From positions 660 to 64,659 of the forward strand of contig JAYEID010000010.1 of assembly GCA_034659915.1 (NCBI GenBank): 64,000 nt of DNA. Reading direction: 5' to 3'. The notes below the pieces were generated by a model, which was not told the DNA's origin, ran no database searches, and saw only the letters and a list, made by a program, of their open reading frames with translations. This document shows positions 13,136 through 21,286 of the stretch, piece after piece (the first letter of the stretch is position 1; each line of letters begins with the position of its first letter). Position numbers and translations under genes: made by a program. This DNA comes from Patescibacteria group bacterium (GTDB taxonomy: Bacteria; Patescibacteriota; WWE3; JAUXAW01; JAYEID01).

Positions 13136-14156
13136 GAAGTTCAATTTTTAGAGTTTGATCCTAGCTCAGGGCGAACGCTGGCGGCGTGCCTAAGGTATGC
13201 AAGTCGAACGCTCGACCTTCGGGTCGAGCGTGGCGGACGGGTGAGTAACACGTGGGAACGTGCCTCCGACACGGGAGTAACCCGGAGAAATCCGGGATAA
13301 TACCCGATGGTGTCCCGATCCTCGGATCGAGACTAAAGGCTCCGGTGGTCGGAGATCGGCCCGCGTCCCATCAGCTAGTTGGTAGGGTAATAGCCTACCA
13401 AGGCAATAACGGGTAGGGGGTGTGGGAGCATGACCCCCCACAATGGCACTGAGAAAAGGGCCATACTCCTACGGGAGGCAGCAATCAGGAATCTTGCACA
13501 ATGCCCGAAAGGGTGATGCAGCGACGCCGCGTGGAGGAAGAAGGCCTTCGGGTTGTAAACTCCTGTTAAGAAGCCACGGCAAACTACGTGCCAGCAGCAG
13601 CGGTCATACGTAGGTGGCAAGCGTTGCCCGGTATTATTGGGCGTAAAGAGTGCGTAGGCGCCTTGTTAAGTTCCTTGTGAAATCCCTCCGCTCAACGGAG
13701 GAAAGACTAGGAATACTGGCAGGGTAGAGGTAAGCAGAGGAAAGTGGAATCTCGGGAGGAGGGGTGAAATCCAATGATCTCCGAGAGAACACCGAAGGCG
13801 AAGGCAGCTTTCTGGGCTTATCCTGACGCTGAGGCACGAAAGCGTGGGTAGCGAAAGGGATTAGATACCCCTGCAGTCCACGCCCTAAACGATGCTCGCT
13901 AAATATTGGTCCCGAGTTTTTCGGTATCAGTATTGTAGCTAACGCGTTAAGCGAGCCGCCTGGGAATTACGGTCGCAAGACTGAAACTCAAAGGAATTGG
14001 CGGGGACCCGCACAAGCGGTGGAGCGTGTGGTTTAATTCGATGATAACCGAAGAACCTTACCAGGGCTTGACATTCCGACGACCGCTCTAGAAATAGAGC
14101 TTTCCTTCGGGACGGCGGAACAGGTGTTGCATGGCTGTCGTCAGCTCGAGTCGTGA

Positions 14157-15005
14157 ACCTAAACTCGCGACCTCCTCGAGTAATCGAGGTGTAAAATCCG
14201 GCTCATATCGGTGAAATCTTATTGATTTCAATTGCTTTTAAAGTTAATTTGGAATTGATGGATAATACCGAGGGAAGTCGGGCACAAATTATTTTCGCTG
14301 TTCGTAAGAATCAAGAACTTAGGCTTACTTCCAGACAAGCACAGATATTAGCAGGTACTATTGTGGGAGACGCTTATATTTACCCAAAGGGGAAGATCCA
14401 AATTGAGCACTCTGTTAAAGAACGAGCTTATGTATCTTGGAAGTATGCTGAGTTGCGAAGTCTTGCTTACGGTAAACCATCCTTAGTTCACAGATACGAC
14501 GAGAGAACGGGAAAAACTTATAAATCCTTAAGGTTTTGGCTACGACAATATTTCAAACCTTTGAGGAAGAAGTTTTACCCAAACGGGAAAAAGATTTTCC
14601 CAAAGAACTTTAGTCCTTTGGGCTTTAATTCTTTATCTTTAGCGGTCTTATTTATGGATGATGGGAGTTACTCTAGAGATATGTGTGTCATATCACTTGA
14701 TGCATTATCTGCGGGGTGTAGAAATAGGTTTACTTGTCTTCTAAGCAATCGTTTTGGTCTTAGAGCAAGAATTTCTTCGAACGGTAAAATTTGCTTTTAT
14801 TCCAAAAGTAGGGAAAGGCTAATAGATATTATTTCGCCTTATGTAATTCCTTCTTTGGAGTATAAGTTAGTGCCTTGACCCCGTAGAGACTGAAGCTTTA
14901 TGCTGAAATGTTTTGTTACTGCGAGGTAACTTAGCATTATACGCCGGCCCCCAATTATTGGGGTGAAGGTATAGTCCAAATTCAAGTCTAAATTGAGTTG
15001 AAAAA
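14157..15005 (+). mobile_element. group-I-like intron in 16S (E. coli ~1070-1080 region) carrying a homing endonuclease ORF
   Basis: Exons rejoin to a canonical 16S sequence. The 3' part contains GAAGGTATAGTCCA (group I S/P7 consensus) and gccccgtagagact, both shared with the 23S intron. Confidence 0.65.
14222..14878 (+). CDS. LAGLIDADG homing endonuclease (double-motif)
   Basis: ILAGTIVGDAYI and LAVLFMDDGS LAGLIDADG motifs; intron-encoded. Confidence 0.75.
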   Translation: MISIAFKVNLELMDNTEGSRAQIIFAVRKNQELRLTSRQAQILAGTIVGDAYIYPKGKIQIEHSVKERAYVSWKYAELRSLAYGKPSLVHRYDERTGKTYKSLRFWLRQYFKPLRKKFYPNGKKIFPKNFSPLGFNSLSLAVLFMDDGSYSRDMCVISLDALSAGCRNRFTCLLSNRFGLRARISSNGKICFYSKSRERLIDIISPYVIPSLEYKLVP

Positions 15006-15771
15006 GGAGATGTATGGTTAAGTCCCATATCGAGCGCAACCCCTATTCTGTGTTAGACTCCCGATTTATCGGGATGATGTCACAGGAAACTGCCTCGGAA
15101 ACGGGGAGGAAGGTGGGGATGACGTCAAGTCAGTATTGCCCTTATGTCCTGGGCGACACACGCGCTACAATGGCCGGTACAATGGGCTGCGACAGGGTAA
15201 CCTCGAGCTAATCCTCAAAACCGGTCTCAGTTCGGATTGGGGTCTGCAACTCGACCCCATGAAGTCGGAATCGCTAGTAATCGCCGGTCAGCCATACGGC
15301 GGTGAATACGTTCTCGGGTCTTGCACACACCGCCCGTCAATTGGGAAAAGTTGGGAATGCCCGAATCCCGAGTTTAGCTTGGGAGAAGGCAGGCTCAGCA
15401 ATTAACAATAAGTCGTAACAAGGTAGCCGTAGGGGAATCTGCGGCTGGATCACCTCCTTTCTAGGGAGTTTGATAAAACTCTTACCGAATTTACGCGGAT
15501 TTATAACGGATAACCGCCGATAAATCTGCGGTAGGAGTTAAAAACTTTGCTTCTCACGAGCAAAGTGGTTAAGTTTGCTAGATAAGCTTTGAAATCTAGC
15601 ACTGACCTTCCATTAATCTGATCCCGCTGGTTGGTGGGACTGGATTGGAAGGATAATAAAGCTCTTTCCACTTTTTGGCTGTTAAGGCAGAGATAATCAC
15701 GGATAAAAGAGTGGATTATCACGGAATTTTTCAGTGATTATCCTTCTTCTTTCAGTGATGATCTCTTTTAG

Positions 15772-15849
15772 GGGCTGTTAGCTCAGGCGGCTTAGAGCGC
15801 CTCTCTGATAAGGAGGAGGTCCCAGGTTCGAGTCCTGGACAGCCCACCA
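15772..15849 (+). tRNA. tRNA-Ile (GAT)
   Basis: Cloverleaf: acceptor GGGCTGT/ACAGCCC, anticodon loop CTGATAA, T-loop TTCGAGT, encoded CCA. Confidence 0.9.
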
Positions 15850-15985
15850 CCCCGACATCCAAAACCGACTTCGTCGGTTTCCGTCGGGGCAGGCCTTGAC
15901 GAGAACTATTTTTTTTTAGTTCAATATGTCAGGGTGCCCCGTAGGAAGCGTTCTTACGCTTTGTGTTAGGGAGCAATTTCCGGAG
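15850..15985 (+). repeat. tRNA-3'-adjacent cassette: nested hairpin, promoter-like TTGACG...CAATAT, then GGGTGCCCCGNAGGAAGCG leader-like element
   Basis: 95 nt identical to 16359-16453. Related copies at 35285-35408, 43873-43993, 57325-57445. Confidence 0.7.
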
Positions 15986-16281
15986 AAAAACTAACCTATG
16001 AAATCTAGATTACAACTAATTTTAAATCCTACCCGTTTGTTAGGTACTTCTAGGTTTGCTTTCTTTTAGGTAGTTTTTTCTGGAACTGAAAACTAAATAT
16101 GGATGAGACCCTTCGAATCGGCACGCCGAGCGCGGAGTTTCATTGAGGTTTCTCGGAAACCTCGAAACTAATTCGCCAGCTCAAATTCTCGGAAGAGTTT
16201 GATGGCTTATTGTAGTTTCTCGGCAACCCTCGAAACTAACTCAGCTTACTAAATTCGGAGACGAATTTAGAGCTTTATTGA

Positions 16282-16358
16282 GGGGCTGTGGCGCAGTGGC
16301 TTAGCGCATCACATTTGCAATGTGAGGGTCGTGGGTTCGAATCCCACCAGCTCCACCA
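16282..16358 (+). tRNA. tRNA-Ala (TGC)
   Basis: G3:U70 pair, anticodon loop TTTGCAA, T-loop TTCGAAT, encoded CCA. Confidence 0.9.
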
Positions 16359-19908: not shown

Positions 19909-20686
19909 CCGTTCAGTGGCTGAAGGTATTTGGCCTTTGAACCGTCTGAACCCTTTACGAATCGAGAAACGGCGGCCTAGGGAAGTAATTCCCTATGGAG
20001 AAATTGGCTCATATCGATGGAGTCCTAATTGCACAATAACCTGTCGTGCGCTAGGATAATATCGAGGGAAGCTAAGTGTACCTTATTCTGTGATGACTAC
20101 AGCGGAAAAAGCTTATATCGCAGGTTTTTTGGATGCTGATGGAAGCATTTATGTAAGGCTTAAACCGAATGAAGATTATCGATATAATTTTCAGGTTGCG
20201 CCATACATTGTCTTTTATCAGAAAAAGAACCAAGTAAGGGTTCTTGAGTATATCCAAAATCTGTTAAATATTGGTTACTTACGATACCGAAAAGACGGTA
20301 TTGTGGAGTATACGATTGGTGATGTAGCTGGTTTGCGTAGTCTTATTGCCATTGTCCGTGATTATCTGGTTCTTAAGCGAAGGCGATTATGTCTTTTGGA
20401 AGAAATATTGTCTCGAAAGGAAGATATTAATTCGCCAGAGGACTTTTTGGCTTTAGCCAAATTGATTGATAAATTTGAGGATTTGAATTATTCACAAAAA
20501 CGAACGGTGACCAGTAAGAAAGTAGCTTTGTCATTGAAAGAAAAAGGTTTGCTTTAGCCCCGTAGAGACTTCTCTAAGTTTTAGAGAGATGGCAACTTAG
20601 GTTGCCATAATACGCCAATCTCCCGTTCGCCAGTTGGCGAATTCGGGATGAAGGTATAGTCCATACTTTTAGTGATAGGAGGTTTA
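19909..20686 (+). mobile_element. group I intron in 23S at the E. coli ~2593 (I-CreI/I-CeuI) site
   Basis: Exon GAGCTGGGTTCAGA|...|TGCGTGAGACAGGTCGG. The 3' part contains GAAGGTATAGTCCA and gccccgtagagact, shared with the 16S intron. Confidence 0.65.
20090..20557 (+). CDS. LAGLIDADG homing endonuclease, single-motif I-CreI-like size (155 aa)
   Basis: IAGFLDADGSIYV motif; sits in the 23S intron at the classical I-CreI target position. Confidence 0.75.
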   Translation: MMTTAEKAYIAGFLDADGSIYVRLKPNEDYRYNFQVAPYIVFYQKKNQVRVLEYIQNLLNIGYLRYRKDGIVEYTIGDVAGLRSLIAIVRDYLVLKRRRLCLLEEILSRKEDINSPEDFLALAKLIDKFEDLNYSQKRTVTSKKVALSLKEKGLL

Positions 20687-20885
20687 TATGCGTGAGACAG
20701 GTCGGTCCCTATCCGGTGCAGGCGTTCGGTTTTTGAGGGAATCTCTTGTCAGTACGAGAGGACCACAAGGGGCAAGCCTCTAGTGCACCAGCTGTTTTTT
20801 AAAGCATCGCTGGGTAGCTACGCTTGTTGAGGATAACCGCTGAAAGCATCTAAGCGGGAAGCCCTTCCCAAGATTAAAAACCGTA

Positions 20886-21006
20886 GCCTGTCCGTAGGAC
20901 AGGCTTACTGATACTCGCTGATTTGTAGCTGATTTTCGCTGATATTGTATTGGCGTTAATCCGTTTCCAATCGGCGTAAATCGGTAAGCCCGCCCTGCGG
21001 GCGGGT
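20886..21006 (+). repeat. 23S mini-insertion family B, copy 3
   Basis: cctgtccgtaggacagg cttactgatactcgctgat...ggcgttaatccgtttccaatcggcg...cgccctgcgggcgg; replaces the tip of a domain VI helix. Confidence 0.65.
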
Positions 21007-21068
21007 GAGAGGTCCCTGGAAGACTACCAGGTTGATAGGCGGTAGGTGTAAGCTCCGCAAGGAGTGTG

Positions 21069-21180
21069 CGGATAGCGAATATACGCGAATTTAATTCTGC
21101 GAATTTTTGCGAATAAGAAAGGAAATTTTCCTTCCATTTGCATTTATTTGCTATTTTTAAATTTGCGACCGATTCGCATC
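21069..21180 (+). repeat. 23S 3'-terminal mini-insertion built of cgaat units
   Basis: Sits between GTGTAAGCTCCGCAAGGAGTGTGCGGAT and CTAGCCGAGCCGTACTAATGACCGAAGG. gcgaatttaattctgcgaat is the reverse complement of attcgcagaat(t)ta(g)attcgc at 12975-12995 upstream of 16S. Confidence 0.55.
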
Positions 21181-21286
21181 CTAGCCGAGCCGTACTAATG
21201 ACCGAAGGATTGAGTATCCTTTACGGGTTTTACAATTTAGAAAACTGCTATTTAGATCTAATGCAAGAGAAATTTGGAAGTAATAG

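Follow-up and report, generated by a model that had tools for sequence, protein, structure and literature searches.

The 64,000-nt stretch of contig JAYEID010000010.1 considered here (hereafter, the window), recorded as belonging to a Patescibacteria group bacterium, contains a single copy of the ribosomal RNA (rrn) operon, located on the forward strand and ordered as 16S, tRNA-Ile(GAU), tRNA-Ala(UGC), 23S and 5S. Both the 16S and the 23S genes are interrupted by an insert with an open reading frame (ORF) for a LAGLIDADG protein, as a preliminary description of the sequence had proposed and as blastn, the junctions and Pfam confirm. This report deals with these two inserts, their sites and boundaries, the RNA structure they have in common, and the genes they carry. 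The main features of the operon are the following (S1078 and L2593 denote the insertion sites in Escherichia coli 16S and 23S numbering):

13148-15458, forward strand: 16S rRNA gene
14155-15006, forward strand: 16S insert of 852 nt, very probable group IA3 intron at S1078, preceded by U14154 (E. coli 1078) and ending in G15006 (omega-G)
16629-~21205, forward strand: 23S rRNA gene
19913-20690, forward strand: 23S insert of 778 nt, very probable group IA3 intron at L2593, preceded by U19912 (E. coli U2593) and ending in G20690 (omega-G)
21290-21405, forward strand: 5S rRNA gene

The borders of the inserts were placed by blastn against the rrsH and rrlH genes of E. coli K-12 (L001 in our numbering of rRNA loci) and by inspection of the junctions by eye. 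In the 16S gene, E. coli 1078-1081 is reached at 14154-14157 and the alignment restarts with E. coli 1079 at G15007, the first base of the 3′ exon. A short GA repeat makes this junction ambiguous by 2 nt, which is settled by the rules of group I introns, since these place a U before the splice site and a G as the last intron base. In the 23S gene, E. coli 2593 is reached at 19912 and E. coli 2594 restarts at C20691, where the 3′ exon begins, and the true junction is GGGTTCAGACCGT/CGTGAGACAGG. In both cases a U closes the 5′ exon and a G closes the insert; the intron-less sites read GTCGT/GAGATGTATGG (16S) and GACCGT/CGTGAGACAGG (23S). The preliminary description had recognized both inserts and had misplaced their ends, giving 14157-15005 (849 nt) for the first and 19909-20686 for the second, with a 23S exon string (GGGTTCAGA/TGCGTGAGACAGG) that is 4 nt off. 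Its proposal that the 23S insert lies at E. coli 2593, a site of the I-CreI type, is exact, and the ORF belongs to the I-CreI family. The same site had also been labeled as that of I-CeuI, which is wrong, as the I-CeuI target is a different 23S position, about 1923; only the comparison with I-CreI holds.

Each insert contains the paired (P) and joining (J) regions of a group I ribozyme core, split into a 5′ and a 3′ part by the ORF in the P6 loop:

14150-14171, forward strand: P1 and P10 of the 16S insert; exon GUCGU and intron GA pair with the guide CUCGCGAC (14164-14171), with the wobble pair U14154.G
14174-14285, forward strand: 16S 5′ core; P2 CCUCGA-GUAA-UCGAGG; 5′ strand of P3, CCGGC, 14198-14202; J3/4 and 5′ strand of P4, 14203-14213; P5 region; J5/4 and 3′ strand of P4, 14261-14271; 5′ strand of P6, GGGAAGUCGGGCAC, 14272-14285
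14258-14878, forward strand: 16S homing-endonuclease gene in the P6 loop; 206 aa from ATG, 218 aa from an upstream TTG
14870-15006, forward strand: 16S 3′ core; 3′ strand of P6, 14870-14882; J6/7 and 5′ strand of P7, GUAGAGACU, 14883-14891; P7.1/P7.2, 14892-14942; 3′ strand of P3, GCCGG, 14943-14947; P8, 14949-14963; J8/7 and 3′ strand of P7, UGAAGGUAUAGUCC, 14964-14977; P9, 14979-14999
19900-19953, forward strand: end of the 23S 5′ exon and intron leader; exon GGGUUCAGACCGU; hairpin 19913-19940; "anti-exon" ACCGUCUGAACCC, 19941-19953
19969-20076, forward strand: 23S 5′ core; guide ACGGCGG, 19969-19975; P2 UAGGGAA-GUAA-UUCCCUA; 5′ strand of P3, AUUGGC, 20003-20008; P4; P5, 20022-20057; J5/4; 5′ strand of P6, GGGAAGCUAAG, 20066-20076
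20093-20557, forward strand: 23S homing-endonuclease gene in the P6 loop; 154 aa from ATG, 155 aa from GTG at 20090
20552-20690, forward strand: 23S 3′ core; 3′ strand of P6, 20552-20561; J6/7 and 5′ strand of P7, 20562-20570; P7.1, 20571-20589; P7.2, 20590-20607; 3′ strand of P3, GCCAAU, 20614-20619; P8, 20621-20648; J8/7 and 3′ strand of P7, 20649-20662; P9, with a GUGA loop, 20666-20681

In the 16S insert, the guide can pair beyond GUCGU either with the first intron bases GA, which extends P1, or with the 3′-exon bases GAG through CUC, which forms P10. In the 23S insert, GCGG pairs with exon CCGU, including a U.G wobble, and ACG pairs with CGU of the 3′ exon.

Relatives of the two inserts were gathered in two independent ways. 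A motif scan with two shared core motifs, over one genome per prokaryotic species, gave 43 loci in bacteria of the Candidate Phyla Radiation (CPR), DPANN archaea, Bacteroidota, Gammaproteobacteria, WOR-3 and Gemmatimonadales; 22 of them lie at 23S-2593, 6 at 23S-2500, 12 at 16S ~1060 and 3 elsewhere. The second set starts from 37 protein homologues of the 16S ORF, for nine of which 11 contigs were fetched. In 10 of these 11 contigs (L047-L056) the homologous gene lies immediately 3′ of GTCGTCAGCTCGTGTCGT, that is, at S1078; the remaining one (L057), in which the same 5′ exon was located and the R element was unmatched, was left out. A structure drawn up manually on the introns of the window was then counted on alignment A1, which comprises 29 introns (CPR bacteria, other bacteria and DPANN archaea), with GAAA put in place of any P6 loop exceeding 26 nt and with the long 5′ leaders cut back.

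Standard pairs are formed in 92.9% of the cells of this alignment, compared with 37-46% after shifting the 3′ partners by 1-3 columns, a control over which the structure is favored by having been derived from the window sequences. Both-side (compensatory) changes occur in 30 of the 48 pairs, and the covariation score of 0.471 (0.183 in shuffled alignments) was reached by none of 500 shuffles, with all of P1, P2, P3, P4-P5, P6, P7 and P8 contributing. P3 is 94% paired, with compensatory changes in five of its six pairs; the values for P4-P5, P6 and P8 are 88, 94 and 91%, respectively, and P7 is 100% paired, an invariance that for the L2593 relatives arises by construction, as they were gathered with a pattern fixing the P7 strands. 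The crossing of P3 and P7 is the pseudoknot of group I introns. P7 reads G-[A]-GACU opposite AGUC-C, and the G-C pair beside the bulge is invariant. In six S1078 relatives the outer pair is A-U instead of G-C, and since these were selected by protein homology and not by RNA motif, P7 has independent support.

The pairings of the exons follow the same pattern. A U.G pair occupies the 5′ splice site in all 29 introns (alignment columns 10/36; U14154.G14167 in the 16S and U19912.G19972 in the 23S), and the guide covaries with the exon, as AACGU with GCGUU, ACCGU with GCGG, GUCGU with GCGAC, and GCCGU with GCGGC. All three positions of P10, between guide and 3′ exon, pair in both window introns and in 22 of the 29 overall, again with covariation (CGU with ACG, CGC with GCG, GAG with CUC). 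Single-sequence folding places P7.1 and P7.2, as two hairpins, after P7 and before the 3′ strand of P3 in 24 of the 29 introns, both of the window among them, and shows a P9 hairpin, frequently with a GNRA loop, downstream of P7 in at least 26. The features predicted to bind guanosine, namely the P7 G-C pair beside the bulged base and the terminal G, are present in both introns. The preliminary description had made its case depend on a P3-P7-P9 core, and such a core is found, P3 and P7 by covariation and P9 by folding. The compensatory upkeep of the core helices across relatives implies a working ribozyme under selection. Archaeal bulge-helix-bulge and group II introns were dropped as candidates for the inserts, given the full group I core and no group II match.

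Both introns probably belong to subgroup IA3, as indicated by P7.1/P7.2, the hallmark of IA introns, and by homology to a published IA3 intron. The latter is IA3.5, an archaeal LSU/2593 (large-subunit) intron of 323 nt at ASMP01000002.1 130592-130914, detected at E=7e-33 with the GISSD IA3 model (Nawrocki et al., PMC6125680). Our locus L002, a 323-nt LSU/2593 intron at the end of contig ASMP01000002.1, matches it by record, site and length.

The two genes in the P6 loops belong to different endonuclease families, in both cases with the number of motifs that had been read from the sequence at the outset. The 16S ORF is a LAGLIDADG_2 protein (PF03161; 9e-24, 84.7 bits versus a cut-off of 25) with two motifs, ILAGTIVGDAYI and LAVLFMDDGSY. 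It aligns over 190 residues, at 2e-8, with I-SceI and a related solved enzyme, GDAYI and FMDDG falling on the two motifs with their aspartates kept. Its ATG lies in J5/4 and its stop, UGA, in the 3′ strand of P6, so that its first codons double as the 3′ strand of P4 and the 5′ strand of P6. The 23S ORF, with the single motif YIAGFLDADGS, is a LAGLIDADG_1 protein (PF00961; 2e-13, 51.5 bits versus a cut-off of 23.1), and its stop, UAG, also lies in the 3′ strand of P6. Its length, described earlier as 155 aa, is reached from the GTG. Its best relatives among the structures of the Protein Data Bank are I-MsoI, I-CvuI and I-CreI (~1e-17, residues 8-147); the D of GFLDADG aligns with D20 of I-CreI and equivalents of Q47 and K98 are kept (I-CreI numbering). 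The identity of this protein is 30% to I-CreI and 41-45% to archaeal L2593 proteins; its exact sequence had no match in the contig index.

The relationship between the two introns is visible in short exact copies: the window contains exactly two copies of CCCCGTAGAGACT and two of GAAGGTATAGTCC, one of each per insert, the sharing of 3′ elements having already been noted in the preliminary description, and GGCTCATATCG and ATA[CT]CGAGGGAAG are also common to both. No additional copies of the core motifs were found elsewhere in the 64-kb window. The cores of the two introns are 56% identical to each other, whereas the 16S core is 60-68% identical to S1078 relatives in more distant hosts (96% to the same intron in the sister-lineage locus L047) and the 23S core 59-65% identical to most L2593 introns elsewhere. 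The common origin suggested in the preliminary description therefore stands at the level of the family, that is, IA3 and its core motifs, and goes no further, given a mutual identity below that of same-site relatives; for the same reason, the idea that one of the introns was recently duplicated into the gene of the other was rejected. Core motifs of the form CCGTAGAGACT ... GAAGGTATAGTCC are borne by the 12 loci at 16S ~1060 and the 6 at 23S 2500, mostly from CPR genomes (L003-L005, L007, L009, L010, L017, L018, L020, L021, L024, L025, L027, L034, L036, L038, L041 and L043), and by three at unplaced sites (L008, L013 and L022).

The 23S intron has, in addition, a leader upstream of its guide in which the anti-exon ACCGUCUGAACCC is complementary to the 13 exon bases GGGUUCAGACCGU that precede the splice site; the resulting helix spans 21 nt and is 86% complementary. 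The hairpin at 19900-19953 was considered as P1 and rejected, because it would set the splice-site U opposite an A, and because in relatives it is the guide GCG(U/G)(U/G) just before P2 that covaries with the exon and gives the U.G pair. From its sequence, the anti-exon leader may hold the exon or compete with P1. An anti-exon stretch upstream of P1 is also seen in other L2593 introns with long leaders (L002, L011, L016, L032, L035, L044 and others). In the 15 long-leader introns the best helix with the exon has 9-13 pairs in 10 cases and 6-8 in the other 5, these being raw counts without a chance control; short-leader introns are without the stretch. The last base of the intron varies as well. 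All 12 aligned L2593 introns with the archaeal-type exon GUUAGCUGGGUUAAGAACGU end in A, directly before CG[TC]GAGACAG (L002, L006, L011, L012, L014, L019, L028, L030, L032, L033, L035 and L040). Most of these records are titled DPANN archaea; that of L011 is titled Bacteroidetes, and its large-subunit gene matches the archaeal Rfam model. The G-ending L2593 introns are the bacterial ones and L029, from a record titled Woesearchaeota.

The host is, judging from the operon and its surroundings, a bacterium of the Patescibacteria (CPR). The MnmA protein encoded beside the operon has 100% identity with one recorded at NCBI under the title "MAG: Patescibacteria group bacterium" (a metagenome-assembled genome), and the next named matches are also from Patescibacteria. 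An identical MnmA is also present in the sequencing runs SRR26901928 and SRR26901925. Identity of the 16S exons is 78% with loci of Patescibacteria and Taylorbacteria and 71% with E. coli. The same 16S intron occurs in two independent metagenome assemblies (L047 and L048), with a LAGLIDADG homing endonuclease (LHE) 92% identical; the intron core of L047 is 96% identical and the 16S exons of L048 are 89.6% identical.

Taken together, we hold with high confidence that both inserts are mobile group IA3 introns, at 16S 1078 and 23S 2593 of a CPR rRNA operon. The reading draws on the sites, the RNA architecture with its covariation, the protein families with intact metal-binding residues, the host lineage and the fidelity of relatives to the same sites in distant hosts; the actual splicing and DNA cleavage would follow from what is known of group I introns and LAGLIDADG proteins. 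According to this mechanism, after transcription the guide would pair with the final bases of the 5′ exon to form P1, with the U.G wobble at the cleavage site, and with the three bases that open the 3′ exon to form P10, while the P3-P9 core would fold round the guanosine-binding G-C pair of P7. Free guanosine would cut at the 5′ splice site and then give way to the terminal G of the intron, and the exons would be ligated, giving the junctions GUCGU/GAGAUGUAUGG (GUCGU-GAGAUG) in the 16S and GACCGU/CGUGAGACAGG (GACCGU-CGUGAG) in the 23S. Splicing would thereby restore helix 35 of the 16S and helix 93 of the 23S, the latter adjoining A2602 of the peptidyl-transferase center. The LAGLIDADG enzyme encoded in the P6 loop would cut rDNA in which its own site is still intron-less, whether in a further copy of the genome or in a different cell, and repair of the break would copy the intron in (homing), allowing its spread among rDNA copies and lineages.

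Several points weigh against this interpretation. Splicing in this organism is a prediction from sequence comparison. The 23S intron has a short P1 of 4 bp, a mismatch and 1 more bp, with which the stronger helix between exon and leader, where the splice-site U is opposite an A, could compete. The two features of the comparison given above, the P7 invariance built into the L2593 set and the advantage of the structure over its slid controls, belong on the same side. Finally, the generic model Rfam RF00028 gives 18.8 bits (E=0.05) for the 23S insert and 12.2 bits (E=3.3) for the 16S insert, under a gathering score of 50. These scores are not counted as evidence against the introns, because ORF-less relatives score as high as 49.6 bits (L039, E=5e-10) and 33.2 bits (L037, E=4e-5), with three others giving no match. 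Rfam thus recognizes L039 and L037, which, besides IA3.5, connects the family to curated group I introns. The low values are likely due to the 480-600-nt ORF in the P6 loop together with the weak sensitivity of the model to this subgroup. The check with Infernal-type generic group I models that had been recommended at first would thus have looked negative for both inserts. Splicing itself, together with any need for the help of proteins, is the least secure part of the interpretation.

With regard to mobility, it might be argued that the ribozymes splice and that one or both endonuclease genes are immobile, either dead remnants or maturases, with the introns inherited only vertically. We judge this unlikely. 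LAGLIDADG maturases descended from endonucleases are known in organelles, and the overlap of the ORFs with ribozyme strands (P4/P6) ties the evolution of protein and RNA. As most CPR genomes contain just one rrn copy (PMC11270868), empty targets within a cell are few. Nonetheless, both ORFs are full length, the metal-binding aspartates are intact in every LAGLIDADG motif, and the 23S ORF keeps the I-CreI residues mentioned above. Moreover, hosts as unrelated as CPR bacteria, DPANN archaea, Bacteroidota, WOR-3 and Gemmatimonadales have relatives of each intron plus its ORF at the same position of the rDNA, a signature of homing that lends indirect support to the predicted cleavage of the intron-less site by either protein, and I-ShaI, an LHE encoded by a CPR intron, cuts its own site in vitro (PMC11270868).

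It is much less probable that the inserts are descendants of group I introns that no longer self-splice and are either retained in the rRNA or excised by host RNases without ligation, which would leave a fragmented rRNA like that produced by 23S intervening sequences (IVS). With about eight IVS-like hairpin insertions in the same 23S, the organism must tolerate inserts in its rRNA or process them; a 23S group I intron that stays unspliced has been recorded in Simkania (as cited in PMC11270868), which again speaks against splicing; and the weak 23S P1 with its strong competing helix would fit such a decay. What decay does not account for is that all core helices, the U.G pair, P10, the P7 G-C pair beside the bulge and the terminal G are intact and kept by compensatory change. 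In addition, the 23S site lies within helix 93 near A2602, where a 778-nt insert or a break would hardly be tolerated. An assembly or binning artefact joining foreign intron-bearing rDNA to a Patescibacteria contig is the least credible alternative: rRNA operons are often sites of chimeric joins in metagenome assemblies, but there is no direct sign of a join here, the exons are continuous and alignable on either side of each insert, ordinary genes flank the operon on one contig (the NCBI record with the same MnmA is a 68-kb contig), L047 and L048 independently carry the same 16S intron in 16S exons close to those of the window, and the nearest 16S exons are those of other Patescibacteria.

Beyond the mobile-intron interpretation, a broader and more tentative reading, which we find possible and rather doubtful, is that a single IA3 ribozyme lineage spread over four or more rRNA sites (16S ~1060, 16S 1078, 23S 2500 and 23S 2593) by retuning only its 7-8-nt guide, and later gained I-SceI-like or I-CreI-like genes in the same P6-loop slot, this operon holding two of the derivatives. 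In the same scheme, the conserved anti-exon of the 23S copy and its long-leader relatives, paired with 7-13 nt of the exon upstream, could be a folding switch by which splicing is timed to the assembly of the 23S.

Other inserts and repeats are found in and around the rRNA genes. Without its intron, the 23S gene is ~900 nt longer than that of E. coli, and six of its extra blocks form two repeat families:

16861-17030, 17068-17244 and 18310-18393: 23S hairpin family A (~170 nt)
17537-17655, 19089-19205 and 20889-21008: 23S hairpin family B (~118 nt)
36212-36242, 47917-47953, 50968-50997, 52636-52666 and 53684-53716: stretches like the arm of family A, either related elements or low-complexity similarity

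The longer copies of each family are 74-88% identical, and their positions correspond roughly to the E. coli helices at 230, 271, H25, H45, ~1870 and H98. Each copy is one long near-perfect hairpin (B copies, -59 to -61 kcal/mol, z -7 to -8), and they look like helix-tip extensions of the IVS type. The recurrence of one element in different places suggests that these repeated hairpins may be mobile or subject to gene conversion. The ACAAAT-rich arm of family A is resembled by the 30-40 nt stretches listed above, 84-89% identical, which lie outside the rRNA operon, at least one of them inside an ORF. A seventh, unrelated hairpin of 127 nt is located near the 3′ end of the 23S gene (~21065-21185). 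A direct repeat of 108 nt, 95% identical, occupies 15844-15951 and 16353-16460; because its copies start at the 3′ ends of tRNA-Ile and tRNA-Ala, the segment after each spacer tRNA is duplicated. The small hairpin UCCCGAUUUAUCGGGA(U) caps four rRNA helices, one in the 16S (15059-15075) and three in the 23S (18234-18250, 18683-18699 and 18961-18977).

Genes with multiple inserts recur among related rRNA loci. Further introns or ORFs are found in L042 (1812-2055), L037 (282-510), L053 (2870-3217), L056 (3066-3629), L054 (303-1067) and L055 (2002-2379). They include additional Rfam group I matches of up to 90 bits, extra LAGLIDADG_1 or LAGLIDADG_2 genes beside the S1078 intron, and a 23S_rRNA_IVP gene.

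Such inserts have practical consequences for annotation and surveys. The 16S gene of this operon scores best with the archaeal small-subunit model of Rfam (964 bits) although the operon is bacterial, and in the first Rfam scan the bacterial large-subunit match ended at 20025, inside the intron. Gene callers thus truncate or mislabel intron-bearing rRNA genes, and generic group I models miss both introns. The 16S gene measures 2.3 kb, and amplicons over position 1078 would gain 852 bp, so length filters could drop them. These practical points are already recognized in the field, and current understanding is unchanged. The operon is a clean example of one ribozyme family with two different endonuclease families, and the 16S-1078 lineage, with its 37 related endonucleases, could be mined for new meganuclease specificities.

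With respect to known systems, L2593 introns with I-CreI-type genes have already been found in CPR bacteria, cyanobacteria, chloroplasts and archaea. The CPR insertions at 23S-2593 are group-I-like introns with LAGLIDADG_1 genes, those of the 16S carrying LAGLIDADG_2 (PMC11270868), and archaeal IA3 introns at LSU/2593 have been catalogued (PMC6125680). The cyanobacterial L2593 introns (Synechococcus C9, S. lividus and Thermosynechococcus) have a short P2, a short P5, P7.1/P7.2 and a single-motif LAGLIDADG ORF in 744-748 nt (PMC1995217). The 23S intron of the window shares with the known L2593 IA3 introns (the Chlamydomonas chloroplast Cr.LSU intron of I-CreI and those of cyanobacteria, archaea and CPR) the insertion point after U2593, the short P2 and P5, P7.1/P7.2 and a ~155-aa single-motif ORF in the P6 loop, and its 778 nt are in the same size class as the cyanobacterial introns. 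It differs from them in its own 56-nt 5′ leader, a hairpin followed by the 13 nt complementary to the upstream exon, and in its guide, GCGG instead of GCGUU, which matches the change from A to C in the host exon. In contrast to its archaeal relatives, which end in A, it ends in the canonical G.

For the 16S intron, the closest well-known endonuclease is I-SceI, also a two-motif LAGLIDADG_2 monomer with both motifs and their aspartates in common. I-SceI, however, sits in an intron of the yeast mitochondrial 21S rRNA, that is, another site and another intron, whereas the homologues of the 16S ORF are tied to 16S 1078 in the contigs analyzed. One 16S intron of Thiomargarita reportedly lies at position 1078 as well. 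The first self-splicing 16S group I introns come from giant sulfur bacteria (Salman et al., 2012, as cited in PMC11270868 and PMC4853749), with IA3 named among their subgroups (PMC4853749). By their description, the Thiomargarita introns are likewise group I, in a bacterial 16S and with a LAGLIDADG gene; the host here is instead a CPR bacterium. A Patescibacteria host is shared with the CPR rRNA insertion sequences (Brown et al., 2015; Tsurumaki et al., 2024, PMC11270868). The CPR survey classified its introns by Rfam model, the I-ShaI intron at E <= 1e-4 (PMC11270868). Compared with that level, both window introns fall short and lie far under the gathering score, and they are recognized only by comparison at the level of the subgroup.

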